A program made the position numbers and the translations under genes. From contig JANJGN010000047.1 in assembly GCA_026770705.1 (NCBI GenBank), forward strand, positions 3,348,001-3,412,000: a stretch of DNA of 64,000 bases, in the 5' to 3' direction. A model generated the notes under the pieces. The model saw nothing but the letters and a program-made list of their open reading frames with translations, ran no database searches and was not told where the DNA came from. Position 1 is the stretch's first letter; every line of letters starts with the position of its first letter. The DNA comes from Isurus oxyrinchus (taxonomy: Eukaryota). Below are positions 1,160 to 40,570 of the stretch, in pieces.

Positions 1160-2860
1160 GCAACACTGAAAGGGGCCTTTCAGCATGTTCTGTCCATGGA
1201 GGCTCTCTGCGAAAGTATCCCACCCACTCACACAACCCTGCAATTTACAATAACTGTGCATTGTTTTTCACTCATTTATCTAACGATATATATTTTAAAA
1301 TCTACGATTCATAATCATCCACCACATCTTCAGGCAGTGCATTTCAGATCCTCGCCGCCACATTCTTAGACGATGCTTTTCATATCTTCAAGCACCATAT
1401 TCTCCAACAATGAATTGCAGATCCTCATCACCATCATTTTCAGAGAGTGCATTTCATATCCTCATCCTTTGCTTTCTCAGGCAGTGCATTGCAGACCCTC
1501 ATCATCCACATTCTCCAACAGTACAATGCAGATCATCAAATACCACAATCTTAGACAGTGGATTGTAGATCGTCATCCAGCACATTCTCAGACAGTGCAT
1601 TCCAGATCCTCGTCACTCACATTTTCAGAAAATGCAGTGAAGATCCACATACGCCTCATTTTCAGACAATGCATTGCAGGTCGACATCCACCACAATCTC
1701 AGACAGCATATTTCAGATCTTTATCCACCACCTTCTCGGAAGGTGCATTCCATGTCCTCATTCACCAAATTATCTGAAAGAGCATTGCAGATCGTCATCC
1801 AGCACATTCTCATACATGTGCATTCCAGACCCTCATCACCCACATTCTCAGACAGTGCATTGTAAATCTTTATTCCCCCACATTCTCAGGCAGTGGATTG
1901 CAGATCCAAATCCACCACATTCTCAAGCAGTGCATTGCAGATCCACATCCTCCACAATCTCAGACCGGGTGTTTCAGATCCTCACCACCGCCCCCCCCCC
2001 CCCCCAACGATCTCAGAATGTGCATGTCAGATAGCTTGAAGCAGATCCTCACCTACCCCCATTCTCAGCCAGTGCATTGTAGACAATCATCCGTCACATT
2101 CTCAGACAGTGTATTGCGGATTGCCATCCAGCATATTCTGGTACATTGCATCTCAGGTCCTCATCACCCACATTCTCTGTCAACGCATTACAGATCCTCA
2201 TCCATCACAATCTAAGACATTGCATTGCAGATCTTAAGCTAGCATTTTCTCAGACAGTGCTTTGCATTTCATCATTCACTACAATTTCAGTCAGTGCATT
2301 GCATATCCTCGTCCACCACATTCTCAGGCAGTGCATTGCAGAACGTAATTAATCGCAACATGCAAAACTAGCATCCTTATGTCACCATTTCCAATTTGTC
2401 CATCACCATGAATCTGTACTGATCATTCTTGATCCTTCCGCCAATGGGAACAATTTTTCTGTGCCGTAATGTCCAGAACCCGAAGGTTGTTTTAGCATTC
2501 CCTCTCCAAGTAGAATATTCGTAGCTCACTCAAACAATGTAGAAAAAATACGTTTGTCATCACCGAAATGATCTTATGAAGCATTCCTGCATCATTTCTA
2601 ATGCCTTCATACCCTCCCTAACGTTTGTAGCCCAGAAATGGAAGCATTATTCCAGATGAGGCCGAAATGAATCATAACATCTTCCCTTCAGTGTACTCTG
2701 TGCCTTAGTTATACACCAAAGAACTCCAAACTTTAGCAGCCTTTTCGCAACCTGCGCTGTCAAGTACAATGTTTCTTACAAATGCACCCGAGGTTCGTCA
2801 GCTTCTGAAAATCATTCAGAAATGATCCAGTTCTTTATTGTTCCTTCTCCTAGTCCTTCG
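1160..2860 (-). mobile_element. Decayed CR1-type LINE 3' region containing an internal minisatellite expansion
   Basis: Flanks (1160-1310 and 2345-2860, e.g. cccagaaatggaagcattattccagatgaggccgaa) resemble the antisense CR1 3' sequence at 25620-26300. Confidence 0.55.
1310..2345. repeat. Degenerate ~37-bp minisatellite, about 28 copies, consensus CAGTGCATTGCAGATCCTCATCCACCACATTCTCAGA
   Basis: cagtgcatt..cagatc..cacattctcag recurs with ~37-nt period and explains the repetitive ORFs at 1373-2352. Confidence 0.9.
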
Positions 2861-2929
2861 TTTGCCAGCCTTACCTCTCTTAAAAACACTCACTTCTAAA
2901 GCACAAGGCCTGTTTCAAGAATGACTCAA

Positions 2930-3320
2930 GTTATTTAGCAGAGCAGTCAAGTCTGTGAATGAAGTGCAGTGCTGTGGGAATGCTGTTCTCTATCATTTTG
3001 CTTGTTCCTGGTAAGAGGTTTAATCGATGCCATATCTGCATCAGTGGAGGTTAATAAAAATATTTACCATGAGTCTACTTTGAGGGAAACTAGGGAGTCT
3101 ATCCAAAGTTATCCCTTGATCAACATCAAACAATGTAGCTCATCTGGTCATTATCACACGATTTTTGTGCGATTTTACTGCGCCCATTATGGCTGCGGCG
3201 TTCCTTAAATTGCAACAGTGCTGACATTACACAATGCAAATAAATGACTGTAACTTGCGCTGAGGCATCCGGTAGTTTTGAAAAAAATACTAATCTACTT
3301 TAAATACGTATTTTTTTTAC
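2930..3320 (+). mobile_element. Deu-domain SINE (SacSINE1-like) remnant
   Basis: ttatcccttgatcaacatc...atctggtcattatcacac...atggctgcggcgttcctt..attgcaacagtg matches the DeuSINE core as recalled; a similar copy lies at 12.9-13.3 kb. Confidence 0.65.
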
Positions 3321-3329
3321 TTCCAACAA

Positions 3330-5190
3330 AAATGGGCCAACCAATGCTTCCCTCAACCGAATTTCGTCTATAACTTTCCGGCCCGTTCTAACAGCTTGTC
3401 GGTGTCTGATTTAATTTTAATCATTCAACATTTTACAACACTTAAAAAAATTCTGTATTCTTTGAAGAAAAAAAATGAAATTGTTCCCCTTACCACCAAG
3501 TCTCGGTAGATATCATGTATTAACGGAAAATCAGGGTTTCTAGCCAGGTGGAATGTCCTGTTCCTCTGGTCTGGAAAAGAAGAAACGTTGAACACGACGT
3601 CCTGTTCCCTTTCAAAGAGCAATTCCATCTCCAATCAGTCATTTTTTTTTATTCCACAGGCGCCAAACTTTTCTGCCAAGCAGCTATCGTGACCCTTTGC
3701 CAAAGGTCATTTCAAAGTCCATCAAAGCCACATCCACTCCATTAGCCTCATTAACAGTCTCACTAACCTCATTAAATTACTCTAGCAAGTCCGTGCAATG
3801 CGATTGTCTCTTACCAAAACTACATTTTTCAACTGGCTCTAACTTCTGTCCCAATGTATATTTTCCAAGGAAACAAAGCTTTCCCAAAGCCAATATTAAA
3901 CTTACTGGTCCGAATTTACTGCATTTATCCTAACACCATTTCTTGAACAAGGTGTAATATTTGGAAATTTCATTTGTCGGCATTGAAGAAGGATGGGAAC
4001 ATTATGACCATTATATGGCGATTTCGGCTCTGACTTTGGTCATGCTCCCCGAATAGACGTCATCCAATCCATGTGTCCCGTCAAATTCAACATCAGTTGC
4101 CCAAGCCAATTCGTCCTCTTTATAAATATCTAAACACTCCATTTTATTTCATCTGCCTATTCTTTGTCCAGCATTGTGGAGCATTTTCTTCCTTGGCTAA
4201 AAAACATACTCAAAATGCTGACTCAGCAGCTGAGCCATAACATCAGCCTTTATATGCCGATTTCCTTTTTGGTGTCTGTTTTGTGCCTATATAAGACTGT
4301 AAGATCCCGTTTTATGTTAGTGGGAGTCTCTTATATGGTCTGGATATTGTACATTCATCTTGGATCTCGCTTGCATTATCCAAATTCAATATCCTATCCA
4401 TATATATTTATTTCTGCTTCACCTTAATCCCCATCTCTTTAATCACCCAGGGAGCCTTTGAGCTTTTGCATAGTCCTGCACTTGTCTAAGTCAATTTTCC
4501 ATTATTGCTCCTCAGTCATTTTCAGAGCCTGCACGTCACGAACATCATTTATTGCAATGTACGTTCACACACCTGAAAAGTAAATATAATTGAGGCCATT
4601 ATACAACCCCGGTTGTGCTTATCATGATTAACACCACATTATTTCCTCCGTTATTGCAATCTTTCTTTTCTACTTTTCTGTGCAGTTTGGTTTTTCTCTC
4701 TAACCATATCTGCCCGTTCCCAAATCCCTGACAAATTCATTCTGTACTGTCCAACCAATAAACCAGACGGACATTGCCGCCGGATTTTTTTTCATGTGAA
4801 ACACATGAAAACATCCATTGGTCCTTTCTTCACAGAACTGAGTCTATGAGTGCATGAGAACAGGTCACAAAGTCACATGAGCTTCATTAGGACTCTCGTG
4901 CACCATTTATCTTGCGACATGTTCATTAGTTCTATCGCTCGTACGTTGTGCTGGGATATTTCAATATTATCAGGATATTACTCCGTTGATGGCAATTTAC
5001 TAGATTGTTTGCAACATCCTTAAAAATGATCTGCAGGACTACACCCCTCTTCCTACCTCTGAAATTGTTCCACTAACGGAGCACGAATGCTGACTGCTCA
5101 CCCTCCCGCATCAGCGTGCTCAGCAGGGTCCCAGTGATCTGCCTCACCTTGGCACTAGGGTCAGAACATTTACGTGAATAATCATTGCCC
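3330..5190 (-). mobile_element. Highly decayed CR1-type LINE fragments in intron
   Basis: Antisense RT-like phrases (gccaaaggtcatttcaaagtccatcaaagccacatccact; ttcccaaagccaatattaaacttactggtcc). Confidence 0.5.
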
Positions 5191-5253
5191 CGGTTATATT
5201 GAGTCAGATGTGCATGATTTGTTTGAATGTTACCCCTTGCTCTCATCTTGTAG

Positions 5254-5568
5254 ATGAAAGTTGGTCACTGAGATTGACGAATGGGGGAAGCCGCTGTGAT
5301 GGTCGGGTGGAAATTTACCACAACGGTCGCTGGGGCAGAGTACAGGACAGCCTCTGGGACCTCAATGATGCTACCGTGGTCTGCAAGCAACTAGGATGTG
5401 GTGTCGCACTTGCCGCTTATACCTCTGCAATGTATGGAGAGAGTGAAGGGCCTGTGTGGGTGAATGATGTCCAGTGTGGAGGAAACGAACTGTATCTCCG
5501 CAACTGCAGCTCATTTGCAATGAATTCGTCTCTCAATGAAAGTGTCGGCGTCGGGGTTCTGTGTTCAG
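5254..5568 (+). CDS. SRCR domain exon B (6-cysteine variant lacking C2 and C7)
   Basis: cttgtag|AT acceptor, TCAG|gtgaat donor, 315 nt, phase 1-1. Encodes LRLTNGGSRCDGRVEIYHNGRWGRVQDSLWDLNDATVVCKQLGCG...VQC...RNC...GVLCS. Confidence 0.93.
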
Positions 5569-6534
5569 GTGAATAAATAGTTCAATTTTACCGGAACATA
5601 AATAGAAATATCTAATAAGGAGGGAGGTGTGAATATACGTCACGAGTTCTTTTAACCTAACTGCTTAGCATTGGAGGGCTAACGTGGGGAGAGTGGGCAA
5701 GCACAGAACTGATCAACAAGCAGGACATGCATTTTTGCTGTGCATTTATTAATGACGCAATTCAAAATTTTCTCTCAAACAGGAAATTCTGACAGCACTT
5801 CTGTTAGTGCGGGGCGGGGGGAGTTGTGAGGGGCGGGGCGGTGTGGTGTTGGGAGGGGCCTTACAGCTTGGTGCGAAATTGTGTGTTAATTTAACAACGT
5901 TTTCATAGAATTGCCGTTCTCATACTCATCAGAGCGACAGGCCGCTCATGGGATTTCTGCATTATTCAATCCATGAAAAAACGATGCACTTACAGGTCTT
6001 TCAGCAGCAGAAGACTGAGCTTCTATGAAATGTCATTCTTAAAAGTCACTTGGTTTCTTTTTTCCACTGAAGCTGCCAGATCCCCTGAGGAATTGCAGCA
6101 TTTTTTTTCAATATAATCAAAATAAAAAAGCGATATAATCAGAAATCGACTGAAATAAGTTTTCGAGATACGTGCAGGGGAGAGAAAAAGCTGTGTACAA
6201 TTGATGTTCATAAGTAGTTTAGGTGGAACGATGAATACAAAAAAGTTCAGTTGAGGTTGAAACAGGGCACACAGCACTGAGCACACAATACGTGAACTGC
6301 AAGCCAAAATATCGATGGAATCAGGTGTAGGAATATTTGAAATCTTTGTGCACTCCACATTATAAATTTCAAGTAATTAGAAAAACATGGTCTCAACTAT
6401 AGAAACAGTTACCTGTCATAGTCAAGTGATTTGTTCTATTACTTTTGCTGGATAATGTCCAATAGTTTCAATTTGTGTTATGACATAAATGCGTAATCGA
6501 ATCCTCTTAATAAAGATTGTCTTCTTTGGATCAG

Positions 6535-6849
6535 AACACAAACAGTTAAGGCTGTCAGACGGTGGAAGCCCATGTGCAGGCCGAGTGGAGATTTACTATA
6601 ACGGGACCTGGGGCTCAGTTTGTGATGATTCCTGGGATCTGACAGACGCTGACGTCGTTTGCAAACAGCTGCATTGCGGAAAGGCTTTGGACGTGACACT
6701 TCCTGACTCTTGCGGAGCAGGCTCAGGTCCAGTTTGGTTGGAAGGCTTGGAGTGTTCAGGGGAGGAATCGTATCTCTGGCAATGTCCTTCTGAATATTGG
6801 GGTGCCCACGACTGTTCTCATAAAGAAGATGTGAAGATCATGTGCTCAG
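6535..6849 (+). CDS. SRCR domain exon C
   Basis: atcag|AA acceptor, TCAG|gtaagg donor, 315 nt. Encodes LRLSDGGSPCAGRVEIYYNGTWGSVCDDSWDLTDADVVCKQLHCG...HDCSHKEDVKIMCS. Confidence 0.95.
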
Positions 6850-7839
6850 GTAAGGGTGACGTAAATGCAATTATTTCCTTCATACGAGAAGATTCAGACA
6901 GATGGAATTTTACTGAATGGCCCAGAAACTGTACATCAACTGGTCATTCTGCTCAATGCGTCTGACTGCTGCTTATTCTGCTCATAATCCTACATCATTT
7001 CATGTGGTCTGAGCTGTATTGCACTCTGTATTTTCCCCTCGTGCCTTTATCAAACGTCACATTCAAGGCATCACCACAATTCGCCCCCACTAAATGTACA
7101 TGTTCCATGTTCCACATTCTCCTTCTATCTGGGTAATAGAAAGCGAAACAGAAAATCTCCTAAATCCCAATTTGTTTGGCTCTTGTGTTTCTTTGTCCGA
7201 AAAAATCACGACTTTATTCTAATCAGCATTGAAATAATTTCAGCATTGACAAGCCCATCCTGCTGTCTCCGACCGTCTTCCTGCAGTTAATGGAACCTGT
7301 CTTGGTATTACCTGCAAACCGTAGTGCATTTTGAACATTTACTTCAATTCCAAATACCAAATGTAATATGTTAATCTGAAACAGATGTGAGCCCCAGCAA
7401 TAATCCATGTGTACATCACGCCCCAACTTCTGCTATTATATATGAAATCCTGCGTTGTTGCTTGTTTGCTCTTCTTTTAATACTGTGCCGGCAATTTCAT
7501 TTCCCTGTTCTCAGCCTTAATGCAGCTGTTTGAAAACTTTTTGAAAGTTATTGTTTTCAAAATCCATGTGGATTACGTGGACATTATTATCTCCACATAA
7601 TCTTTCTGAAACTTCCTCAAGTAATTCAATGAATTGGAAGATCTATAGTTCGCTCTTTTGAAATCTGTGTTGATTATCATTGATTATATAATTGGATTGT
7701 ACATGTATCACTGTTACATTTCTGGAATAATTATCTCTATTCAGTGAACACCTCTGGCACAACTTGGGTGGAGGGGGCACTGTTGACATGATTCCATTTA
7801 TCACTGGAAACATCTGGAGATTTCTTCTTTCATTGATAG

Positions 7840-8157
7840 AACACAAAGCGCTGCGGCTGGTGAATGGAAAGCATCGCTGTGAGGGGCGGGCGGAAGTGTT
7901 CTACAATGGGATCTGGGGAACAGTGTGTTCGGAAGCACTGGATCGCCATGATGCTGAGGTGATCTGTAAACAGTTACAGTGTGGCCCCCTGGTTTCTATA
8001 GACTATACCACTCAGTCATTCGGAGAAGGATCCGGACCTATTTGGCTCGATGAAATAGAATGTATTTCACACGAGTCGACCATCTGGCAGTGTCAGACAG
8101 ACCCGTGGGGACAACACAACTGTAATCACAAAGAGGATGCAGGCGTTTCATGTTCAG
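7840..8157 (+). CDS. SRCR domain exon D
   Basis: gatag|AA acceptor, TCAG|gtaaca donor, 318 nt. Encodes [27 protein letters not shown]...[17 protein letters not shown]. Confidence 0.95.
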
Positions 8158-8240
8158 GTAACAAAACAAACCTTCCAATGTGCGAGTGTTATTTCATTCA
8201 TTGATGTCCAAATGAGTCAGCACGTTTCTTTCCTCAACAG

Positions 8241-8297
8241 GAAGAAAGATAACGAAGGGCCAGCCCAAAAGTGAAAAGGATTGTGGTCGAGAATCAG
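8241..8297 (+). CDS. Short inter-domain linker exon (GRKITKGQPKSEKDCGRES)
   Basis: tttctttcctcaacag| acceptor, TCAG|gtgatt donor, 57 nt, phase 1-1. Open and in frame between SRCR exons D and E. Confidence 0.75.
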
Positions 8298-8385
8298 GTG
8301 ATTGCTCCACTTTAATAGATCAATTATCTGAGTTGTCTACCTGTATTTTTGTGCAGAAATAATAGTGATTGATTATCTTTGACAG

Positions 8386-8703
8386 ATTCAGATGTAGGTT
8401 TGCGCCTGATTGGAGGTAACACCAACTGCTCCGGGCGAGTGGAGATAATGTGCAAAAACAACTGGAGCACAGTGTGTGATGACTCTTGGGATATGGCCGA
8501 TGCCAATGTTGTCTGCAGACAGCTGCATTGTGGCTCTGCTCTATTGGCCACAGCAGGGGCCACTTTTGGACAGGGTGAAGGTGACATGTGGTTTGATGAG
8601 GTGAGGTGTACCGGAAGCGAATCCTTTCTCTCTGATTGTCCTTCCTTAGCGTCTGCTCAAACTGACTGTGATCACAAGGAGGACGCCAGTGTGATTTGTT
8701 CCG
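8386..8703 (+). CDS. SRCR domain exon E (membrane-proximal)
   Basis: ttgacag|AT acceptor (in-frame alternative exon start at 8392), TCCG|gtaagg donor, 318 nt. Encodes [31 protein letters not shown]...[14 protein letters not shown]. Confidence 0.95.
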
Positions 8704-8851
8704 GTAAGGGTATTGCAGAATGGTGCGAGTAGGGGCCCGGAGATTGGCGGTTGGTGATTGTTTGCTGAATACATCTCATGAATTTGTAAATGATGAAAAA
8801 GAGATGACTTTCTAAGTTAAAGTTCTATATTTTTTGTTTAATAACCCATAG

Positions 8852-14317: not shown

Positions 14318-14850
14318 GTGGGTAAAGTTTTACTTCCGACCGTCTCGTTTTCATCCTTCGCACTCAGTAATATCAACAATCGAATGTGAAGTATTAAAAA
14401 GAACAAAAACACCATTAAGTTGCACGGACGATGATATCAGCTACTACAGTGACTTTAGATAAAAGCGCTTCTGAAATACTTTCAGGCTGATACAATATCA
14501 TATCAAAATCATGTGATTGTACTCAATAATACAAAGGAGTGAAATGCTTTAACTTAGAGTACATATCATATTATTAGTTTCATCACAAGGCCCAGTAACC
14601 TGCGAAATGTGCAATGCGCATGCAGGCTGTCGAGATCATTGGGTCAGTGAGACACGTGACATCAAAACATAAAATAATAATACTGTGACGCGAAATGTTC
14701 CAAAAATTATCCACACATTAAACGCCCTCCCCTGTTAGTGCAACAGAACCACTGTTCTCTCCTCGGAATGTTTTGTTGACAAGTCTCAATGTTATTCCAA
14801 CTCTTCATTGTTAGCAATTAATCTCAATGAAAGTCGTTTGTTCCTCCCAG

Positions 14851-14976
14851 CTTTCCGTGATTACGACGATGCTGAGACTACAGACAATGATTCTAAGGGC
14901 GATCACTTGCTGCCGGACCGTGTTCATGATGAGTTCGTCACACGGGAAAATACCGGCGGTGATATTTTAACTCTGG
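14851..14976 (+). CDS. Cytoplasmic exon 3 with DYDDA motif (AFRDYDDAETTDNDSKGDHLLPDRVHDEFVTRENTGGDILTL)
   Basis: ttcctcccag| acceptor, CTGG|gtgaga donor, 126 nt, phase 1-1. YDDA/YDDV-type motifs occur in WC1/SCART tails. Confidence 0.8.
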
Positions 14977-15489
14977 GTGAGACAGAGATTTATTTATCTT
15001 CTCAGACTGTCTCTCTGTATTGTTGGTGACTTTCTTATTCTCTGCTAATATCGGTTCTGAAATGACTGATAGTCCATTGGATGAACTGCGGAGTCTCTCA
15101 CTAACGGCACATGCGCTGCTTGAATGGTTGGGTAGACAGGTTGTCCGAACTGTTGTGCGCTCCATCCATCATCTCGACTTAGTTTATGCACGTTTGTGTT
15201 TGCTGGATTGCGGCCAACCGCGTTCTCAGATAAGTCACAGGGTTAGCTGACTGTCTTCAGGGATGCGTTGGAAACATCCCTGAATTGTTTTTCCTCCTCC
15301 TTCTGGGAGAAATCTGCCTCCTGCACCTCCCGCCACTGACTTCAGAGTAGCTGATTACTTGTGATTATTCCTTCCATCACCTGCTCACATTTGCGGTTTG
15401 AACTGGATCTCTTTAAAAGTCCATTCATATTGGCGATTGAACAAGGCTTTGTTAGGAGTATGCTCCTCTTGAGCTGATACCACTTATTT

Positions 15490-16901: not shown

Positions 16902-18799
16902 AACATCAGGCTTTGCAGGACGTTGTCTGTTGCCTCCCAGCAGCACAACACAGCCCGGGCAAAAATAAACATCATTTCTCTTTCACTCATAAATAAATAA
17001 ATTCTAACTTCTTTATGGTGCTGTCCCACACCCACACACATGCTTACTCGCTTGTGCACAAACACATCAGGCACCTGAAATGCACCCGCTCTCAGCCCAT
17101 TATTAACCAATAATATGTTCATCCTAAGTGCATAACACTCAGGTTATATTTGATTACGCCTTATCGGTTCCTCCCATTCCTGATATGTATGACAATGTCC
17201 TCTGTGAAACATTCACAAACCCGCCCAATCTGTCCCCAGAAAGCAGTGAGGGTATTGCTCAAACTTTACAACATATACATTAAACTGGGAAAGCAATGCT
17301 TTATTACTGGCTACAAGCTTGTTCCGCATAGTTAGGGACTATGAAGCCCTCTCTGGTCTTTACCATATCATTACATGGAGTTGTTCCGATGCTTTTAATG
17401 ATGCGGAAATTATCAATGATAATTTGCTGTTTTTTATTTTCAATTCAACAAACAACAAAAAAAAACTATTTGATTTGGAAATAGTCCGAAGAATAAAATG
17501 AATGCATCGCTTTCATTTAGATGATGGCGGAAATAGTTGCAACCCTCTCTCTAAAGCAATATTATTTTAACCCATCTTTCAGGTAAAATACATCGACAAA
17601 TCGAGGATCCGACGTCCCACGCATGTGACTAACTGTGTGATATCTGAGGGAACGACCTTAAGTTTTCAATAAATATATCCATCTGGAAGATGCTTAACTT
17701 TCCGACATAAACATGTTTTGAGAAAAAAAAAACAAACGTTACCTTGTGTGGAGACATCTAGATTCGTTTCTTAAATCTATAAATTATCTTAAAAAGTATA
17801 AATACTGCCTAATGAGAATTGTAGGACAAAGGATTTTTTTCGAGCATTTTCATGTATATAATTAAACTGTAGCACACTCCGCTGTATCGACAATACAACC
17901 CATCAAGAGAATTGAAGAACCAATGACTATCATTAAAAGTTTATTTTCAGCTCCATTTTGTAATAGTTTTTTCTTTCCAAATGCCTTACAAATGAAGGGT
18001 TGGAACAGGGAAATAAATGAAATATCTGTTTTACATCCATTTGGTGTGCTTTCTCTCTAGACTGCCACATACGTCGGACACAGAGAGCTGCATTCTCATA
18101 GCAGCTCAAAACAGCACGATGTTGCTTGACAGCACAACATATAACTCTCGGGTTATCGAGTCTGGAGGGAGGAAAACATTCAGAATTCAATATGTCTCCA
18201 ATACTTTACTTTTATAACATAACTGCTCAGTTGTCCATCAGTGGAGCTCAGATCTAACTGACTCAGGAGAAACAATTCACCGTGCACTATCCCCCAGCAG
18301 CTCTTATTTTAGTTCCATGAGGTTGGCGATTGTATCAGGCATGACCACATGCAGAGGGCCACCATTATAACAAATACAGCACAAAATAGAGACAAAATGT
18401 TCAAATAATGACATAACATAGACTGTTAGAGAAACAGTGCTCATGTTTCCTGTCTGTGAAAGGGTCATGGGCCGGATTGATAAAATAAACCCTCAGCTCT
18501 AGCACTCTGTGTTCTGTCCCTGTGAACTTGCTGTGCTATGTACGCTCAGGGAAAAAAAAATCTTCCTTCTCTGAAAGGCTGGTGGAAACATAATCGCGCT
18601 TAATGTTTGTTGCCAATCTTCCAGCTGGTAGAACCGAATCACCAGCTGTTTGGAATTTTGTCCTGTCTTCACCTGTAGCGAGACACCAACAGTTGACATC
18701 AAGCCATCCTTCCCCAGACACTCTCGGGACACCATGGATGCTGGAGTTATGCACACAGGAAACTAATTCCCCCTCACGCCACAGTCTACTCGAGCATAT

Positions 18800-19265
18800 T
18801 CTACATCCTTCTGAATTCCCATAACACTCAAGACACTCAAGAACATCCAGTATTAAAGCCGCCCGCTTGACTGCTGCACCACCCGCCATCTACGGCCTTA
18901 AATAAATCATTCCTTCTCCCTTTGACAATGGTAGCAGTGTGTACCATTTCAAAGATATACTGCAAATACTGAATAAGATTATTTTGGCAAAACTTCCACA
19001 CACACGAGCTCTCCAACATAGAAGGACAAGGGCAGCAGGCGCATGGAAGCGATGCTACCTGCAATTTCCCATTCAAATCTCACACACCGTATGGACTTGG
19101 AAGTATATTGTCGTTCTTTTACTGCCGATGCACAAAAATCCTGGAAATCCCACCGAACCGCACAGAGAATGTATCTACACCACAGGAATCTGGCTCCCAC
19201 CATAAATATCAGGGCAATTGGCAATGGGTAGGGTATAGTGGCATAGCTAGTGATGCAACATCACG
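18800..19265 (+). mobile_element. LINE 3' end (same family, sense orientation)
   Basis: aacactcaagaacatccagtattaaagccgcccgcttga...cagggcaattggcaatggg...tagctagtgatgc is the reverse complement of the 9270/15490 copies. Confidence 0.65.
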
Positions 19266-19611
19266 CAAATGCCTTTATAAAAATGGTGCAGCTGTCTGAC
19301 ACATCATTCCCACTTCTTGCTATCACTAATATTTTGAAAGTCATTTACAATTCTCTTCAGACTATACGCAACATGTTTAACCATTTCCAGTATCCTGGCC
19401 TTCATTAATTCTGTTTCACAATGGACATCCAGTTCCCCTACAACAACTTGGACATGCCACTACATCTGTATCACCGTTCATTCCATGTTGTTGTTTTAGG
19501 GTCCTGGAATTCCCTTCCTTACAACTCTATAATTAAAGGGCAATTAGGAATCAGCAACAAAATCTGAATTTACCACCACTCCCGCATACCACAAAAGAAT
19601 AAAAACGTGAT

Positions 19612-20380
19612 GCATCCTTCCCTCAGCAGAACAGCCAATTCCCATAGAACTCTATCTTCACCAGGTTTCCCAATCCCTCTAAGCCTCATGCATCACGACA
19701 ACATTCAGTCCCCCTGCAAATCCATTCATCAGCAGGGCATCCAGTTCTTCTACACACACATACCTCAGCAATACAATTGGTCCCTCTGAACATATATTGT
19801 TCAACAAGAAATCCAGTTTCACTATGCCAACATCCCGCACAACGACATTCAGTCCTTCTTTAACTCCATCAGTCGCCACGTCTTGTAGTCCCTCTGCATA
19901 ACATTCCCTCAATGGATATCTTGTTCCTCTTCAACTAAATGCCACAGCAGGAAATCAAATTCCTCCACATCTCCATCCCTCAGCCTGGCACACAATCTTT
20001 CCAACTTTCCATGCCTCACGAGGAAATTCAATCCCTCTCCACCTTCGTCTACCAACAGGGTATTCATAACCTCTACCCCTTCATCTTCACCAGGAAAACC
20101 AATCTCTCTTCACCTCCATCCCGCAATATGACCGGCAGTCACTCCTCACCTCCATCCATCACAGGGCATGCAGTAATTCCGCATATCGGACACTCAACAG
20201 CATGCATTTTCCCTCTACACATTCATCCCTCAGCCCGGCACACAGTAAGACTGTATTCCCATTATTCAGCCGGACATCCAGCTTGTCCAGGCCACCTCAC
20301 TCACCCCTGGCATCCGGTACCTCTACACGTCTCCCTCCGTGGGCATCCAGTCCTTCTACACTTTCATCCCTCCCCAGTGA
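19612..20380. repeat. Degenerate 36-bp minisatellite, about 21 copies, consensus ~CAGCAGGACATCCAGTCCCTCTACACCTCCATCCCT
   Basis: 12-aa periodicity in the + ORFs (HQQGIQFFYTHI, PQQEIKFLHISI, PHEEIQSLSTFV, YQQGIHNLYPFI). Confidence 0.8.
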
Positions 20381-20399
20381 TGTTAAGTGACTATGACAT

Positions 20400-21890
20400 G
20401 GTTAATTTTTCATGAGGACAGAGAATGATGTATTTGGGTATGAAACAAGGGTCCTGAAACGTAATGGAGAAGGTTGCGATGGTTTGGGGTGCGGCCTGTC
20501 TTTGCTGGATTTGGAAATGTTTTTTGGAGGGATGACGGTGGATGGGCAGTGACGGATATTTGGGGGGCGCTTTGTGGCTTCAACACTTGTTTGTTCATGT
20601 CTGGCGCAAGGGGAAGATAGCAATGGTGTCTGATCCATGGCCTACAGGGGAAATTGGGGATAGTGTTGGATCCAAGGAAGCGGCAGACAAGTTGGAGGGG
20701 AAAAAGGGAAAGACATGAGGATTGGGAGCACTTTAGAGTTCATCAGGGGAAGACCAGGGGATTGATTAAGTGGCGAGGGTGGAGAGTGCGAGTAGACTTG
20801 CGGGAAAATATCAACTGACTGTTAACGCTTCTATAGAATGTGAGGAGGGAAGGGTTGGTGGATACATGTGCGGGTCTCTTAGAGTCAGAAACAGGTGATT
20901 TATGATTGAGAACGAAGGGGTGGCTGACCAACTAGATGGATACTTTTGGTCTGACTTCACAAAGGAGGACGTGGGTGACGTGCCAGAAATGTTGGGGAAC
21001 AGGGTCTAGAGTGTAAGGGAGGAGCTGTAAGGAATCAGTATGGGCACAGAAATGGTGTTGGAGGGATTGATGGGATTGAGGGTCAGTGGAATCCTGGGGC
21101 CTGATTGTCTACGTCCCAGTGTACTTGGGGAGGTCGCCCTTTAAGTGGTGGATGCACTGGTGGTCATATTCTGAGATTCTATAGAGTCGGGTAAAGTTCC
21201 TGCGGGTTGGAGTTTAACTAACAGAACGCCAAAATTTGGAAGGGCAGTTAGAGAGAACGCAGGGAGTTGTTGACCAGTCGGGCTGACATCGGTGGTGTGG
21301 AGAATTCAGGAGTTAAATTTGGAATATTTGGTAGGTGAGCCCTTGGGAAGCAGTGGCAGAATCGGACAGAGTCAGAGACGGACAGAAGACTGGTTGGCAG
21401 GCAAGAATTAGGGAGCGGTCATGAGCAGGTCTTTTACCGAATGGCAGGCAGTGAATAGAGCAGTGCTGCGGGGGTCGTTGCTGCCATCCAGGTTATTCAG
21501 GGTGTGTGTCAATGGTTTTGATGAGGGAGCTGGGTGTGGTGTCTCCGAATTTGCAGATGACATGGTTCTGGTTGGGAGGGTGAGCTGTGTGGAGGATGCG
21601 GAGATGCTTCGGTGTGATTTGGACAGGGTGAGTGGGTGGGCTGCTGCATGCCAGAAGCAGTGTGCTGGGGACGGATGTGAGTTTGTCCACTCTGGTCGCA
21701 GGGATGGGAGGGCAGATCGTTATCTGAATGGCTTTGAATTGAGTGAGGGGAGTGGGCAAAGAGGTATGGGGACCGGCCACTGAGGGTAAGCATGCTAGTG
21801 CAGTGGTCAATGGGGGAGGCGGATGGTGTGTCGGCCTTCGTAGCTGGAAGATTCGAGTAAAGGAGGGGGGGATGTATTGCTGCAAATATA
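20400..21890 (+). mobile_element. CR1-type LINE ORF2 fragment with strong A-to-G bias and an internal deletion near 21375
   Basis: ORF 21421-21783 reads AVLRGSLLPSRLFRVCVNGFDEG...VSEFADDMVLVG, corresponding to CR1 RT GVPQGSVLGP.LF.IYINDLDEG...ISKFADDTKLGG. Homologous to 27.0-29.5 kb. Confidence 0.85.
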
Positions 21891-22344
21891 CAGATTATAA
21901 AATTTCATATCCGAGTGTCACAAAGACTGCTCATCATAACAAGGAGACACAGGAAAGGCACATTCTGGGGAGTTAATTTATACTAGTGAAGTAGAAGGGA
22001 TTAACACACTTGCCCAGGCTCTGCAAGTCCATTTCCCAAACTCCCAAACTCTGCCCATACGTATTGTTGAACCCCAGAATGCAGATTAGAAGTGGACACA
22101 GCCTGTTGATTGTGTTTACCTTGACGGGCAGCCTCTGGAGGTACCCAGCCTGCTGTCGTGGTCCTAAAATGTGGAAGAGGTACCCTCCTCGGCATGTGGA
22201 GTTGGGGCTGCTGAGGTCACTGGAAGGGGGACTCGGAGAGGACAGGTACGCGTGGAGCCAATGGATTGTATAGACATGGTGATGTGCATTGTGGGATTAT
22301 CCTGCATATTGGTGCCTGAAAGTCCTTGTCTGAGTCATTGGCTG

Positions 22345-22835
22345 CGTGTGTGAGATAATGTGTATGTATGTGCCTGTGTGTGCATGTGTGTGTCTGTTCA
22401 TTTGTGTCTTCATGAATCTGTATGTGTAAGAGAGAGGGAGAGACGTGTGTGTTTATTCCTGTATATTTCTGTGTGTGAAAACGGATGTTTATCTTAAAAT
22501 TTCTGCGAATGTGGAAATTCACTTGTGTTTATGTTCCTGATATATGTGTATTGCTGTTATTGTGTGCACGTGTGCTTTTCTGTGTGTTTGTGTGTCAGGG
22601 AGTACTTGTGAGATTTTGTCCGTGTGCTTGAGTATCTCTGCTTGTGACAGTAATTATGTGAGCAGGTGTGAATCATTTTTTGTTTGCCTATGTGTATTCA
22701 TATGTGTGTCTGCGCATTTGCACGCTTGTGTGATTTTGTGTGTGTGTGTGCGTGTTGTGTCTGTGTGTGTATTTCTGTGTGTTTGTGTGAGTGAGTGTTT
22801 CTTTGCACATGTGTGTGTGTGTGTGAGAGAGAGAT
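22345..22835. repeat. Degenerate (TG)n low-complexity tract
   Basis: Long imperfect TG-rich run ending in (GA)n. Confidence 0.85.
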
Positions 22836-22851
22836 AGGGTGAGAGTTTATG

Positions 22852-23255
22852 TGAAACATAGGAACATAGAAATATAGAAATTGGAGCAGGAGTAGGCCAT
22901 TGGGCCCTTCGACACTGCTCCATCATTCATTATGATCATTGCTGATAATCCAGCTCAATATCCTGCTCCAGCTTTTTTCCAACATCCTTTGATCCATTTC
23001 ACCCCAAGAGCTATATCAACTCTTCCCTTAAAACATGCAATGTTTTGGCCTGTACTAATTCATTTGGCAACGAACTCCAAAGGCTCAAGAACGATAGAGG
23101 TGTTGAAAACACAGCTTGACAAATACATGAATAGGACGGCAATAGAGGGATACAGACCCTGGAAGTGCAAAATGTTTTAGTTGGTGGTCAATAGGATCGA
23201 CGCAGGCTTGGAGCCAGAAGGGCCTGTTCCTGTGCTGTACTTTTCTTTGTACTAT
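22852..23255. mobile_element. Two CR1-type 3' ends in opposite orientation (minus ~22852-23085, plus ~23085-23255)
   Basis: gaaacataggaacatagaaatatagaaattggagcaggagtaggccattgggccc (antisense tail) and gggcctgttcctgtgctgtacttttctttgtactatg (sense tail). Confidence 0.7.
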
Positions 23256-24774
23256 GACATCCATTCCGTCTACCTCTCCAGACCACGCCGGAACAACCAA
23301 TCTTTCTGCAAGTTCATCGCTCACCAATGCACTAAGTCGCTCCACAACTCTATCACTGAGTTGGAAATCCATTCCTTCTAACACCTCAGCTTCTGTTAAG
23401 GACAGCCTGGCATGGCACCCACTACCACCATCCCTCAGGTTTACGTTCAAATCCAGTGCAGCACAATACTTGGAAAAGCCATTTTGACAGAGAACACTTC
23501 TGTCTCTTCTCAGAATGGGTAGTCTCGATCTCTCCCTCATCCCTATTAATTATTATTCACCAAGATTACAAGTGGATTTTTAGCCTCCTACGTTACTGGG
23601 CATTCTGTGGATTGCTTCATCGCTGATCCCTTCCACGCTTTCCAAACGACCCATCTTTTTCATTCATATACGTCAGTCCAAATAATTGCCTTGTAACAGC
23701 AACAATCTTCATCTGTCGAAACTTAACTCTTATTGGAAAAATCATCTTTGCATCTACAGCATTTCTCCAATAAAAGCACAATAATTACATTAAATCCTTA
23801 AGAGTCCTAGCTATCCCTTTGTTTATGTGAAGGGAACATTATTTCTGATATTTTAACTGCTATGTTATTCTGCCTTTAGTTTACTGGTGTTGACTTGGAA
23901 TAGACCACCTATCTATTATATAAAATAATTCAATTCCTGTCCTCCCTATGCATGACTTATCTGTGAGGCCTCCCGCTTCCTCCCTCGACTTCCTATTTCC
24001 ATTTGTGGGGATAGACTGTTTACAATACGTATAACAATGCTGCTGTCATGCACACCAATCTTTATCATTATTCCTGCCATTCTGCTTCCTGTAATTTCTC
24101 AGCTGATTTTTCATATTCCTCCGCCTTCATCACATCTGTATTAATTGGGCCACGTTCCACAACAGTACTTTAGAAATTATTTCCTCCATGCTCTGCCCAT
24201 AAGTCGGCTTCATTGGGGCACACAGGGATCTCGATCATGACGGTCCCATATCCTGCACTTCCGCCCTCGACCTGCTCCTCTGCATCAGCATCATGCTAGA
24301 CTCCCATCTATACCTACCTTCCACAACCCTAAAGATCAATTATTTTACTGTGTTTGCAACTGGCACCTACTACGTCACCAAATGCACTTTCTTCATCACC
24401 TGGTCTCTTTCGCTAATCATACGTAGACCGTTTTTCCTCTGGAAATCAGCTTTATTTTCGTATGAAACGGCAGAGCCCCCCCCTTAGAGGGATAATAAAT
24501 TTCACCCACAAGCGTTACATACAGAACACTCTTACCCTGTTGTCTTTCATTTTTCAGGGCCACAACAAATCCATCCTTGTGAAGTCATGTTGGTGTACTG
24601 CTTCTGCTTTCCTATACTGGATTCATTGAACATGCGGATATTGCTACAACTCACTAATGAGTCATTTTGTATCAAAGTTAGACGTTGTACTGATCTGTCA
24701 CTCAGCAACGCGGCAAATTATGTATGCAATTTAAAAGCAATTTTGTGCAGTCAGTGGAGGCCTGTATTAAGTAC

Positions 24775-25611: not shown

Positions 25612-27010
25612 TCGGAATCACAGCATCTCAGCGCAGAACAGGCCATTCGGCCCATCGAGTCTGCAACGACACGAGATTACAACCAGACCTAACAACCTAT
25701 TTCCATTTCCCAGAACGTGGCCCATAGCCTTAAATGTTATGACGTGCCAAATGCTCATCCTTGTATTTTTTAAAGTATGTGAGGCAACATGCCACCACCA
25801 CCCTTCCAGACAGTGCATTACAGACCGTTACCACCCTCTGGTAAAAAAAAAAGTTTTCCTCACATCCCCCCTAAACCTCCTATCCCTCACCTTAAAGTAT
25901 GCCCCCTTGAGAGGTCAAATATGGGGAACATCCATTCCCTATCCAACCTGCCCATGTCCCTCATAATCCTGTAAACCTCGATCATGTCGTCCCTCAGTCT
26001 TCTCAGCTCCAACAAAAACAACCCAAATCTATTCAAACTCTCTACAGAGCTTAACTGTTTCATCCCAGGCAACATCCTGGTGAATCCCCTTTGCACCATC
26101 TCCAGTGTAAACACATCCTTCCTTTCATGTGGCGAGTAGGGTTGCACACATTACTCCAGCTGTGGTCTCAATAATGGTCTATAAAGCTCCAACATGTCCT
26201 CCCTCCTTTTCTAATCTGTGCCTTGTTTTATAAAGGCAAGTCTCCAATAAGCCTTTCTCACAGTCCCACCAACGTGCCCCTCTGCCTCCAGGGAACTATG
26301 GACACACACGCCAAGTTTCCTTTGTTCCTCAGAACATCCAAGTGACATTCTGTTCATTGAATACTTCCTTGACAAAGTCATCTTTCCAATATATATCACC
26401 TCACACTTTTCATGGTTAAATTCCATCTGTTTCTTATTTGCCCACTTGACCTTCCCATCTATATCTTCCTGATCCACAAGACACTGAAACTCACTGCTAA
26501 CTACCCAGCGAATCTTTGTGTCATACGCAAAATTACTAATCATAACCCCCGCATAGTCAAATATGTCATTTATATGATTGACAAAAATGGTGGACCGAGC
26601 ACAGATCCCTCTGGTACGCCACTGGATGGACCGGGTTTCCAGCCACTAAAGCATCCTTCTGTCATCACGCTCTACCTCCTTCACTTTAAGCAATTTTGAA
26701 TTCACCTTGTCAAATAACCCTGAATCCCATGTGCAGTTGCATTCTTTATAAGTCTCCAATGTGGGACCTTGTCACAAGCTTTGCTGAAATCCATTTAAGC
26801 TACGTCAACTGCACCATCATCTACACATCTGGTCACCTCCTCAAAAAAACTGAATCAAACTTGTTAGGCATGACCTCACTCTGACAAAGCCATGCTGACT
26901 ATCACTGAGCAAAACTTGCCTTTCCAAGTGGAGAGAGAGACTCTCCTTCAGAACTTTTTCAAATTTTCCCTATAACTGACCTGAGACTCACTGGACTGTT
27001 CTTCCCTGGC
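25612..27010 (-). mobile_element. CR1-type LINE, RT C-terminal half plus 3' UTR
   Basis: Minus ORFs ISNFAYDTKI...KWANKKQMEFNHEKCEVIYIG and LEMVQRGFTRMLPGM...LFLLELRRLRDDMIEVYRIM; 3' tail gaacaggccattcggccc at ~25637. Confidence 0.9.
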
Positions 27011-29490
27011 TTATATCAGTAATCATGAGGATGTTCAAGGTACAATAAACTGGGAAATACTAATCAGTACTAATGTTGTGTAGGTATATATATTGGGGTG
27101 CATGTAAGATTGTTTCCTGAAGTTGCATCTTGAAGAACCAACTCGACAACTGGCAATTTTAGATCTAGTATTGTGCAATCAATGGACAGAATTAATTTTT
27201 TTGTTGCAAACTACCCATTAGGAAAGAGAGACCATAAATTGCTAAAAAAAACCCCAAGTATTCATTCACAACATGTTTTCGTTCAATGGGATATTGATCT
27301 AAAAGTCAAATGTGAGGGCAGGATCTTCAAGTTGACTTTCTTCTGGCAAAGCTTCGTTAAAAGGCATGATTGTAGACAGTCAATAGCTAAAACGTAAGGA
27401 AGGCGTGCATAATTTACTACAAAAATACATTAATTTAATGCAATAAGGCCAAGCAAGGAACGTGTCTCAGCCATGGCTAATTTATTAAATATAGGATTAC
27501 ATTGGATCAAAGGAAGAAGTGTACAAATTTGCAAAAAATAGTAAGCCTGAGAATTGGAAGCATTTTAAATTCAGCTACGATAAATCAAAAAGAGAGAGAA
27601 TCTTCACAGAAACACAGAATACCACAGTGCAGAAGAGGCCATTCGGCCCATCGAATCCGCACTGGCACGTGAGAAACACCTGAATTAATTAAGGGGAAAA
27701 GAATATAAGGCTAAACTAGCGTCAAACGTTAAAATATGGACTGTTAAATATCCTATAGGCAAGCAGAAAGGAAAATACTTGTGAATAAACGTCAAATATG
27801 TGCCCATTACCAGGGGATTATTGATAACTTATAACGCAGAATAAGGAAATGGCCGGGAAGCTATATAAATATCTTATGCATGTCTTTATGGTGGAAAATG
27901 CTAACACTTCTCAAAAACACTGGAGGAGCAGGGGACTACTCTAAGCGAGGAAATTCATGATATTAATATTCATCTTGAAAATAACACTGGAGAAATTACA
28001 GGCCCTTAAATCTAATGGTTCCCTTTGAGGTGAAGGTCTGCATCCAGATAAATTGAAAAATGTAGCTTAGAGATAGGAGATGCAATGGCGATCATCGTTC
28101 AAATTTGATAGATTCTGGAATGTATTCTGCTGATCGGAATGTGGTGAATGTAACCAAGTTATTTATGAAAATTAGGAGAGAGCAAATAATGAACAAGAGG
28201 TGTTAGCCTGACATCAGCAGTAAGGAAAATTCTAGTATACCTAACGGAGAATGTGAACATTATACACCGAGGAAATAATTGGAGGGTTACCCCGAGTCAA
28301 CATGGATTTGAAACAGGGAAATCGCGATTAATACATTTGTTGGAATTTTCTGAGAATGTGCTCAAGCAGAACAGTTCACGGTGAAACTCTGCAAGTGGTA
28401 TGTTTAAAATTTCAGGAGGCTTTAGTAAGTTCCTACACGCGAAGCTGGTAAGCAACATTAGATGCATGAAATTGCGGGAGTGGGGCGATGGTGGGGGTTG
28501 GAGGGGGTGTGATGTTAAAGCCTGCATTGTGAACTGTTTAAGAGTCAGAAAACAGAGACCAGGAATCATTAAATATTTTCAGGTCGACAGGCTGTGACTA
28601 ATTTGGAATTGCAAGGTTAATTCCCTGGGATTCACTTATTTACAATCTATATCAATGATTCGGATCTGGGGATTAAAGGTAATATTTCCAAAATTACAGA
28701 TGACAAAAAAACTTTGAGACGGATGCAAGGAGGTTTGCAGAAGCTAAGCGAGTGGGTGCAGGTTCGGCACATGGAATACCATGTGCAGAGATAAGAGGTT
28801 ATCCACCTTCGTCAGAAAAAAAGAGAAATACCGAGTGTTTCTAAAATGTCCAGAGAGTGGGAAATGTGGCATTGGGTATACTTGTTCATGAGTCACTGAA
28901 AGCTAACATGGAGGCACAGCCAGCAGTTAAGAAGCTAAATAGCATATTGGCTTTTGAATGAAAAAAATTGAGTGCAAGGTAAAATATTTCTTTATGCAAT
29001 TTGATCGTTATATTTGCAGAATGGGGATGGCAACAAAGTTTCACCAAATTAATTAATTAAATGGAGGGATTGTCATATGAGGAATTATTAAATAAAAATA
29101 CATTTAATATCCAGAGTTTAGATCGCATTGAAACAAGAAAAAAATCTAATAATGTTAGCCAAGGCTGATGCTGGAAGGACTTTTCACCTGGATCACGAGT
29201 CGAGAAACAAGGGAGGCGTTACCTCAATTAAGAACAGGCCATTTAGGACAGGGATGAGGACGCAGTTCTGAAAGGAGAGTATGTACAATCTTTAGAAATC
29301 TCTGGTCCAGGGGGCTGTGGAGGCTCAGTCATTGCTTATTCAAAGGACCGATGTCAATAGTTTTCTAAAGTTAATCAAGGGTTACGAGAAAATGCAGGAA
29401 AATCATGTTAAATGTGAATATCACCAACTATTTCATTGGTTGGCGGGAGGTCCCGAATGTCTGAATGGCTTAATCCTTCTCCTATTTCTA
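27010..29490 (+). mobile_element. Decayed CR1-type LINE ORF2 (endonuclease end through 3' UTR), with a short antisense CR1 tail inserted at ~27603-27682
   Basis: EEPTRQLAILDLVLCN (27132), SQHGFETGKSRLIHLLEFSE (~28295), LFTIYINDSD...ISKITDD (28636), 3' tail ctgaatggcttaatccttctcctattt (29461). Confidence 0.85.
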
Positions 29491-37800: not shown

Positions 37801-39755
37801 ATTTATAATTGAAAATGCTTTGAAATGTTAATTCATTAATTTTTGTATTATTGTATGGGGAACGTGTTTCTGGACTAACAGAACGAATGAGGCCACCGGG
37901 AGGTGTGAACAATGTTGTATTTGGGGCTACATGTCTTCGGGTTTCTTGATAAGCGTTTTTCTAGTGCTTCAGAAAGAGGCTGATCACAGTTTCCATTTGT
38001 AAAACAGGCAGCTGAAATCCCTCCATCTCCAACTGCATTCTTCTGTTTTAGATTTGATTCCAATGTTTTTCTTTTGTTTGTTTTCTCACTGTAGATTTTT
38101 TCTTTTCATTTCGGCACTGCTTCAGGTTTACGATTGAATTCTCTGCTCGCTCTTTCATATTTTCTCGCAAAATGCATTTTGGATGATTTCACTGTAACGG
38201 GGCCACGCTGAAAAGTGAAGCACTTTGATGGGGCGTTGTATAATGTTCACTGTTTTGCAGGGATGTTCACTGCTTTTGTCCGGCTACGGTTCCTTCCAGT
38301 TAAGTATTAACTTATTGGGAGCATAGATGAAATTGACTTCCGGCAAAATGAATCATGGAAAAATCCAGCACTGTACTTTACAATTGCAAGACAATTATTT
38401 TATTTATATTTTTGTGAAGTCTGCTTGGAAGATCCATGATTTTTTTTTTCTTCTGTGCATTGTACATGATACAAACAGTTGGAGACATGCATTGTTGCTC
38501 AAATTGTTAAACTGCTCACCGCGACTGAACAACTGCACAGATTGTGAATACTAAAGTTTGAAATCTGGCTGGCTAATAGAATGGAGAAGCAGGATATAAT
38601 GCCCAAAATGAACGTTGAAAAAAAAGAGGAGAGCATTGGAGAGAGAGAGAAAACAAAATAATGTAAAGCTATCATCAGTGTGAATCATGCATAAGGTGGG
38701 ACGGCTGATTTGCTCAGAACAATTATTGAGACAAAACTGATGTTAAGTTGCACATACGATGGTGCCACATATAGTGCAGAGTAATGGTGGATCTGCTCGG
38801 TGTGAGTTAAAACTGTCAAGCCTTCAAGAGAGTTTTTTATTGAAGCTTCATTTTCCTTCCTTACTGCAGACTAGGCATAATAGCGTCATGTTTTCATTTC
38901 CATGATGTCGATTGACAGCTTCACTATCGTGATTTGAATACCATCTGACAACTCATTAGAAAAAACATCATTTCAAGAACATGTTTAAATTTATTGCTTG
39001 AAAATGTGCTGAGGGAATTGATCACACTTGATTTGTTCCCAACTTACTGGTTCCATAACACAAATGGGCACAGGTAATGATGTTTTTTTGTGCAAACTGA
39101 ACTGTTAAAGACATTTTTGCACTATTATTCTGCTGAAATATATCCCTTTTTAACTAATTCTACTCTGATTTTAATCAGTTTATGCAACTGCCAAATCCAT
39201 CAGCTCCAGCCTTCCTTCCAGCTCGGATATGACATTGCCCCTGTCTTCCTAAATATATAATTCATTGTCTCGGCCTCCAAATTACTCTCCCAATGGTATC
39301 CAGAACGTTGAACTCAATGCGATGTGAGTTCATTTATTTTATTTTAAAGACTGTTTCGGCAAAACACTGATTGATTCGCATGTACCAGTAGAACGAAGCA
39401 GCTGTAATAAACGTTGTCACAAGGAATCCCTCCCGTTCGAATGCAGCCCAAATGACAATTTCAGACGTTGGATTCCGCCTGTGTAAACTAACTTCCTCCT
39501 CTCGGCTGGCACTGCACTGCAGAGTCACTCAGTCCTTTCTGTGGAATCGATAAAATTGATACAAGTTGTTTCAAGATTTCCTGAATCATTGCTGGTTTTA
39601 AAAATAAAACCCAATCAAAGGTTCAAAAAAAAAAACAGGGTGAATCGGATGATGCTCCAGTAAAGTACTAACATCAACCACAGATTGTGCCACCTCCTGC
39701 TGTGGCCCCACATCTTAACAATAACTTCTATGCTTTATCTTTCCCCCTCTCCAAG

Positions 39756-40570
39756 TTAACCTGGCGGCGATTGCAATCCTTTCCCGAGGAAAATGCGTTC
39801 TGCCCAAGTGTATCACGGGGCACCAGCTGGGAAAGGCTGTGACCGATCTCCCTGTCGTTCTACCTGAAGCGATATTGCAATGGATAGGGGCGCTTTATTT
39901 CCTAGATTACTTCCTGAAAATTACTTCTGTGTGCTACCTCATTATCACCTTGTCCTTTGAAGCAACAGCGCTTTCCATATGTTTCACAGTCGCTTTCAAC
40001 TTTGACCGATTCATGGCCATTTGTTGCAAAAAACTGAGAACAAAGTATTGTACCGAGAAAACTGAAGCTGTCGATTTCGGAACAGTGAGCGTGGTGGGCT
40101 GCTTTGTAATGATCTCGTGGTACTTTATCCGGGAACCAATAAATAAACTTGATAATATATTGTTACTTCACCCGTATCATCCGTATATTTGATGCTCTTC
40201 TGATTTTGCTTCTCAATCTCCCAATGATCAGACATCTTGTGGTTTCCAATAGTATCCGATGAAGTCTCCAGGGCTGTAATAAGAAAGAGGATCGCTAGGA
40301 ACTAGATCTGTTGAGCCGAAGGATGTCCACCATTTTAATGTTCAGAATTTCTGGCAATTTAATTCTGTTAACGGCATTCCACCTAGTTTATAGCAATTAT
40401 CCGAATTTCCACAAACTGTTAATATAACAGAAATCAGAGCAGCAATGTTGCAGTGTCACAATAATTGCGCCAACACATGTATTCACATTCTTACCCGGAT
40501 TAAATTCAGAGAGGAGTTGGTGAACGATGTAAAACGCCCATTCAACCTTAATCCAAAAAGGGCAAAGATT
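39756..40570 (+). pseudogene. GPR139/GPR142-like class A GPCR pseudogene (main exon)
   Basis: Phase-1 acceptor, then VNLAAIAILSRGKCVLPKCIT...TDL...FTVAFNFDRFMAICCKKLRTKYCTEKT...; TM5-6 ILLLNLPMIRHLVVSNSIR*...SRRMSTILMFRISGNLILL; TM7 NTCIHILTRIKFREEL. Carries in-frame stops, frameshifts and a shortened ECL2. Confidence 0.85.

Follow-up and report, generated by a model that had tools for sequence, protein, structure and literature searches.

A-to-G hypermutation has been described in the avian retroviruses RAV and ALV and also in HTLV-2 and STLV-3 (reviewed in PMC12925331), and of 235 pseudogene insertions made by L1 in cultured cells, three carried clustered edits in inverted Alu repeats (PMC11702581). 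Template switches are reported in the same study, where nine L1-made insertions join two RNAs. ADAR1 is also described as restricting L1, apparently without editing (PMC12925331). Traces of APOBEC activity take the form of G-to-A edited LTR retrotransposons in vertebrate genomes, found by a G>A-filtered screen in which other cluster types were negligible (PMC4866542); a trace survey likewise read genomic clusters as the work of APOBEC (PMC2873906), and one A>G-rich provirus has been reported without an ADAR context (PMC12548423). Bipartite and tripartite LINE chimeras, in which template switching, RNA ligation or twin priming has linked the 3' end of a LINE with copies of other RNAs, form a further related group (PMC2104539; PMC13174262), and PMC13174262 mentions neither editing nor ADAR. 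Human ADAR1 and ADAR2 are reported to prefer 5' neighbours in the order U>A>C>G, the 5' base being the most influential, with a weaker 3' preference (G>C~A>U) whose effect is minor and for which none is cited for Xenopus ADAR1 (PMC3113232).

Here we describe a hypermutated LINE segment of the shark Isurus oxyrinchus, found in a stretch of 64,000 nucleotides that was analysed as a whole and that we call the window (contig positions 3348001-3412000 in a 4.98-Gb assembly). The segment, hereafter the edited arm, is real and strongly ADAR-like, and reflects one ancient germline event in a chimeric LINE insert. As in the insertions of PMC11702581, a LINE reverse transcriptase likely wrote edited RNA into chromosomal DNA and the edits are limited to one segment; those insertions, however, are somatic, were made by induced L1 and were edited within inverted Alu repeats in the 3' UTRs of mRNAs, whereas the shark insert is fixed in the germline and found in two organisms, is edited over 1.5 kb, probably derives from an edited RNA that is itself a LINE, and has its duplex partner outside the insert. 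In RAV and ALV, too, as many as about half of the adenosines are read as G once reverse transcribed; the retroviral cases, HTLV-2 and STLV-3 included, differ in being exogenous retroviruses with short U3 or inverted-repeat tracts rather than germline-fixed non-LTR elements (PMC12925331). The elements of PMC4866542 are likewise fossils of strand-specific deaminase hypermutation in genomic retroelement copies, but they show G>A arising on cDNA and belong to LTR elements only. The described LINE chimeras have target-site duplications (PMC2104539; PMC13174262), whereas in the shark insert one segment is hyperedited and two LINE families are joined to a piece of the host genome. The principle is already published, for avian retroviruses and for L1-made insertions in cultured cells. 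The literature searched gave no match for a germline-fixed, A>G hyperedited CR1, though one may already be in print.

A sequence-only reading of the window had proposed that a CR1 copy at 20400..21890 carries dense sense-strand A-to-G substitution, judged against a related repeat at 27-29.5 kb that it took to be diverged. That comparator is indeed distant, with only ~58-60% identity to the true family, here family A, and for this reason we used a column-majority reference over 30 dispersed family A copies (L031-L060), in which agreement is at least 80% at 1648 of 1694 columns. A longer family A reference of 3776 bases was built from 41 loci. The family A ORF matches RVT_1 (E 1e-30), a domain found for families A and B alike, and the window ORF at 21412-21780 has 49% identity to it; family A is presumably CR1, a label taken from sequence motifs and from the short-repeat tail. 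When window 20850-21890 served as the query and the best 40 of 3087 candidates were scored, at least 19 copies at 94-100% identity were found on five small contigs, and the next family stood at 76-77%.

Both sequence examples quoted in that reading are present where it placed them, and the substitution excess proved larger than it had noted. Relative to the family A reference, the window copy reads G at 159 of 500 adenines and C at only 18 of 332 thymines; rates for the remaining ten types range from 2 to 10% (among them G>A 20/416, C>T 20/198, A>T 26/500 and A>C 11/500), and no rise is seen in T>C, A>C or T>G. The majority sequence of the 19 duplicates gives A>G 165/501 versus T>C 20/337 (Fisher p 1e-22), with the other types at 2-9%, a strand-specific excess that contradicts the strand-symmetric spectrum raised as a counter-explanation. 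At 148 of the 165 A>G sites G is present in ~90% or more of the duplicates. A>G runs at 21-47% in 15 of the 16 covered 100-base bins, the exception being one short bin (2/14), and A>T and A>C in the arm show no excess over background. Subtraction of background leaves ~140 net changes; by hand estimate, and allowing for later loss of G, about one third of the arm's adenines were changed. The changes show no preference for codon position (70/187, 53/182 and 43/142), and among 504 codons 116 were hit non-synonymously versus 27 synonymously. The arm bears a hallmark of ADAR hyperediting, A>G confined to the RNA (sense) strand.

Best-match family copies are skewed to low divergence, and two further background sets were added. 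When pooled, the 30 reference copies have rates of 1.3% for A>G and 1.1% for T>C; 30 family copies chosen by position (L207-L236) have A>G at 0.5-3.2% in their main alignments; and 13 resident family A copies, of similar divergence and from similar clusters, have A>G at 4.6-6.6% and T>C at 3.4-6.1%.

On the 5' side the sequence context of the changes is ADAR-like. Sorted by 5' neighbour in the duplicate majority, A>G occurs at 50/94 sites after T, 70/169 after A, 25/95 after C and 20/142 after G (p 2.5e-10), that is, at rates of 53%, 41%, 26% and 14%, and this order, T>A>C>G, equals the published ADAR order (PMC3113232). The depletion of 5' G that the sequence-only reading had looked to as support is accordingly present (G 14% vs T 53%). 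It is absent from four pooled resident copies (G 43/642, T 30/414), whose lineages together show rates of 7.2% after T, 6.7% after G, 4.5% after C and 4.4% after A. The 3' neighbour has no effect on A>G (p 0.28), and none of positions -3, -2, +1, +2 and +3 is significant. A 3'-G preference was not found in the arm (44 observed, 45.7 expected within 5' classes), which counts against the ADAR reading, although refined ADAR data predict this preference only weakly. Edited sites are also clustered beyond what context explains, again as anticipated (197 runs versus 223 +/- 10, p 0.006, 2000 permutations). The edits extend from reference position 1493 to 3170 of an arm that covers 1472-3195, forming a dense and sharply bounded tract.

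The ~1.5-kb extent given earlier stands, with its limits corrected to 20378-21893; the tract is, however, only one part of a 2.88-kb insert, carries an internal deletion and lacks its 3' end. Four empty sites (C18 twice, C20 and C27; 71-75% identity) join position 20377 directly to 23257, so that 20378-23256 is a single insert of 2879 bases; all four share one joint and are without every part of the insert. At its left end lies the edited arm (20378..21893, plus strand), a 5'-truncated copy of the CR1-like family A that corresponds to reference 1471-3195, reads about one third of its adenines as G, has a 189-base internal deletion at 21374/21375 and is without the last 580 bases of the element. 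There follow host segment X (21894..22863, plus strand), made up of a unique part and a TG-rich part and with paralogues at 71-74%; the antisense 3' stub of a resident family A copy (22864..23087, minus strand; reference 3549-3774); and the 3' end of a family B element with its short-repeat tail (23088..23256, plus strand), which is 89-90% identical to dispersed copies, stops at 23256, where family copies stop, and is the likely priming end. X and the family B piece are unedited, and the stub is unedited on both strands.

The left flank (19600..20377), recognized by its self-matches as a degenerate C-rich tandem repeat with a ~142-base unit, was the target of the insert, and the right flank (23257..24460) is continuous with it in the empty sites. 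C-rich degenerate tandem arrays with strong strand skew occur in the window at 1311-2370 and 19600-20377, and the second of these took the insert at a unit boundary. No target-site duplication is seen at the insert in comparison with the four empty sites. In CR1-group elements such duplications are described as short or absent, and a whole tandem unit may have been lost at the left flank, itself a degenerate tandem repeat. Other hallmarks of LINE insertion are present, with an intact family B 3' terminus at one end and 5' truncation at the other, where the arm starts inside the ORF, and microhomologies at the junctions amount to 1-4 bases only. The unique part of X, polarised, has A>G at 3/93 and T>C at 4/83; the stub has T>C at 2/56 and A>G at 5/61, versus 18.5 and 19.2 expected had it been edited like the arm; and the family B tail has A>G at 1/41. 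Lying in the same insert, these unedited segments are a built-in control for polymerase error and for regional bias. The flanks differ from the empty sites by A>G of ~3-6% (unpolarised).

The region around the insert has been duplicated ~19 times, on contigs C47, C62, C87, C114 and C303, and the insert was copied afterwards to 19 places along with a cluster of SRCR genes. Five SRCR exons lie at window 657-8732 (Pfam E 1e-26 to 1e-33); the stretch at 14739-15029, which matches no Pfam family, may be a cytoplasmic-tail exon, and a weak remnant of a rhodopsin-family GPCR lies at 39725-40192 (7tm_1, E 0.006, below cut-off). Many near-identical G-rich copies, which had been named as a finding that would speak against editing, do exist in form; because their flanks are common to all 19, they are segmental duplicates of one event. 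The order arm-X-stub-B is kept in every duplicate. Three duplicates were rearranged after the original event: in L012 another repeat is inserted at the left junction (window 20383), L019 is without window 18542-20883, and L007 loses its match upstream of 20791. Minor alleles that arose after duplication, counted in 17 of the 19 duplicates with the partial and misaligned L007 and L019 dropped, number 24/366 for A>G and 10/376 for T>C (40/366 and 36/376 with the two included). The burst ceased after duplication; the residual A>G bias is mild, one fifth of the burst, and counts against a perfectly neutral background. A mild excess of A>G over T>C is seen in resident copies as well. An apparent extra reversion at edited sites (60/168) was rejected as an alignment artefact from the two partial duplicates; without L007 and L019, reversion is 14/150 versus 24/359 at non-CpG sites.

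The edited letters recur in independent public runs, giving the read support that the sequence-only reading had pointed to in the form of assembled contigs rather than raw reads: in organism A those of X1, which may come from the very sample used for the assembly, and of X5, and in organism B those of X6 and X19, match the arm at ~95-97%. Contigs of X1 span 20200-21942, which holds 55 differing letters, those of X6 and X19 span 20652-21163, with 25, and G>A differences from the majority are found at 8-12 places per run across 2.1 kb. The left and arm-X junctions are bridged by contigs of X1, X5, X6 and X19, the stub-B junction is covered by those of X1, X6, X19 and X12, and the right junction by those of X1, X19 and X12, with 30-32 letters on the short side, in both organisms. 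Since contigs of both carry it, the insert is older than the split of organisms A and B. The edited G letters are one old event, not an error.

Segment X is a copy from a multi-copy locus family elsewhere in the genome. Of 31 distinct paralogues examined, including five matched over just 141 bases, 20 carry a family A copy in antisense immediately behind X, and these copies are near full length wherever the fetched stretch reached far enough; a sense arm upstream of X was found in none of the 31. When the arm-X junction itself was the query, all 21 non-duplicate matches among the best 40 of 798 candidates start inside X. No Pfam family scored above cut-off in 65 frames around X paralogues. X and one old, near-full-length family A insertion together make up a large duplicated locus family on small contigs (L080-L104, L165-L176, L244 and L246). 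That insertion is 11-17% from the family A reference, versus ~4-10% for dispersed copies; the X-locus clusters may be mutating faster, or the X-linked insertion may be older.

Derived bases separate the ancestry of the parts. Over the range of the arm, resident lineages share 15-36 derived bases pairwise (6-12 expected) and the close pair C203 and C20 shares 118, whereas the arm shares 5-10 with residents, where 6.4-10.4 are expected. At 62 diagnostic sites, defined by a derived base common to at least three of five resident lineages, the arm matches the family at 50 and carries the derived base at 7, four of the latter being A>G; the stub has the resident-lineage derived base at 5 of 9 sites. 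By this pattern of sharing, the resident locus family is the source of the stub and X, and a separate, consensus-like copy is that of the arm. We rejected the idea that the arm is a fold-back of a resident copy, as it shares derived bases with residents only at chance level.

In our judgement, the burst likely records an ADAR-edited LINE RNA, in an insert likely built in a germline cell by reverse transcription from several templates. As A>G stands in the sense of the element and inosine templates C, it would have been the RNA that was changed, before copying. A consensus-like family A sense RNA would have lain in a long duplex and had about one third of its adenosines deaminated. Reverse transcription would have begun at the target, with the 3' tail of a family B RNA as its first template, and after ~170 bases would have jumped to an X-locus template, read antisense to the resident LINE, from which the stub and X were copied; it would then have continued into the edited RNA, reading inosine as G, and stopped at reference 1471. 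The intact B tail on the right and the truncated end on the left fit such a right-to-left, target-primed course with two jumps, and the middle piece may have served as a DNA template. The earlier proposal that an edited LINE RNA was retrotransposed therefore keeps its ADAR part and loses that of a plain CR1 RNA, the element's own 3' end being missing and priming having used another family's tail.

The likeliest duplex partner would be an antisense transcript of an X locus, either a separate molecule or the other arm of a hairpin. Two molecules would suffice if a LINE sense RNA paired with a transcript that read across X and on into the resident antisense copy. A single hairpin would call for a source locus in which a fresh sense arm directly adjoined X, and X and the stub could then be unedited because they formed the unpaired loop. 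Neither such a locus nor a partner for the duplex was found in the arm-X junction search (best 40 of 798 candidates) or among the 31 X paralogues, a result that counts against our reading. Inverted insertions of family A occur at 3 of 72 dispersed loci. A single read-through RNA subject to simple twin priming was rejected on orientation, since it would put the arm on the other side of the stub; splicing was rejected as well, no GT-AG fit being seen by eye at either the arm-X joint or the internal deletion. Among the loci examined there was no intermediate showing joint arrival of the pieces. Exon matches to the A_deamin domain number 28 in the genome, spread over 7 contigs; this domain occurs also in ADAD and ADAT1. 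A further step, possible though doubtful, is that the insert keeps both partners of one sense-antisense duplex, the reverse transcriptase having jumped from a LINE-antisense host transcript to the edited LINE RNA paired with it, via the ends of a cleaved duplex.

ADAR editing could be right and the composite could still have arisen stepwise, an edited family A copy coming first and its 3' end being replaced later by X, the stub and the B tail through nested insertion and deletion or through DNA repair. Such a history could draw on the missing target-site duplication, the microhomologies of just 1-4 bases, the later deletions and insertions in L007, L012 and L019, and the ability of L1 to insert templated genomic DNA (PMC11702581), but we think it unlikely: no target sequence lies between the four segments, the right junction has a clean B tail and no family A tail, the order of the segments is the same in 19/19 duplicates, and 4/4 empty sites are without every part.

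A burst on one strand at the DNA level is less probable again, whether from a WA-preferring, eta-like polymerase, a dATP-starved second strand or deamination of DNA in an RNA:DNA hybrid. Polymerase eta favours WA contexts, and in the arm, too, TA and AA are preferred; the locus does lie in an immune-type gene cluster (SRCR) with a mild regional A>G bias. Yet the burst ends at segment borders within one insert, and a polymerase error or nucleotide imbalance is disfavoured because a single polymerase would have produced the edited segment next to the unedited ones. A>T and A>C do not exceed background, C and G as 5' neighbours differ twofold, slippage beside G would favour G neighbours where these are depleted or neutral, and the flanks show A>G of only ~3-6% against the empty sites (unpolarised). 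ADARs do edit DNA in hybrids in vitro (PMC12925331), but editing of first-strand cDNA would read as T>C in element sense. That the arm is merely a G-rich LINE subfamily, a product of GC-biased gene conversion or an assembly artefact is hardly credible. The 19 near-identical copies, which might suggest it, have common flanks; other subfamilies do show some A>G excess (22% vs 10% in window 25817-27017, at 58% identity), but the best non-duplicate matches, at 76-77%, are unedited, the changes ignore codon position, T>C, A>C and T>G show no rise, and the edited letters occur in contigs from two organisms. Reverse transcription of an ADAR-edited LINE RNA into a multi-template insert remains our preferred reading.

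Similar independent copies, for which the sequence-only reading had suggested a genome scan, did not emerge from a screen of family A with a 29-base motif allowing A or G at edit sites: 2820 copies match it and none has the three set edits, and a shorter motif with two set edits gave 2 matches, both unedited elsewhere. By hand estimate, with a ~0.14 chance of three edits, hyperedited copies make up less than about 1% of well-preserved family A copies, the screen missing old or decayed ones, the window arm included. No outlier for A>G was found in 132 alignments from 106 non-duplicate loci (best p 0.011) or in 16 family B alignments. A suspected edited copy in L247 was rejected as belonging to another subfamily (18/373 against its own kin). 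Locus L024:1374-3443 holds inverted family A arms with overlapping reference ranges (1831-2964 sense; 1862-3059 and 3536-3754 antisense), neither of them edited at the DNA level, and on its arrangement is a candidate present-day ADAR substrate. At L041:1-3496 the family A 5' part (reference 1-1427) stands in inverted orientation ahead of a sense part that starts at 1474, a twin-primed layout; twin-primed insertions are mostly described for L1.

On this reading the arm is a clean inherited record of RNA edits becoming germline DNA mutations through a non-LTR retrotransposon, with ~140 net changes made in one step, and the unedited segments of the insert provide an internal control that single-segment cases lack. 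The sequence-only reading had seen in it germline ADAR acting against a retroelement; its reading as a record of ADAR is supported, whereas defence would need more than this single fixed copy, which cannot show restriction. The combined test of spectrum, 5' context, empty site and segment ancestry is applicable genome-wide. Since ADAR1 is published as restricting L1 without editing (PMC12925331), a LINE RNA that was hyperedited and yet reverse transcribed is relevant to the question of whether ADAR encounters LINE RNA in germ cells, and where it does so. If the insert does keep both partners of one duplex, old antisense LINE copies would be traps that bring active LINE RNA to germline ADAR, and chimeric inserts would be a readable record of such duplexes.
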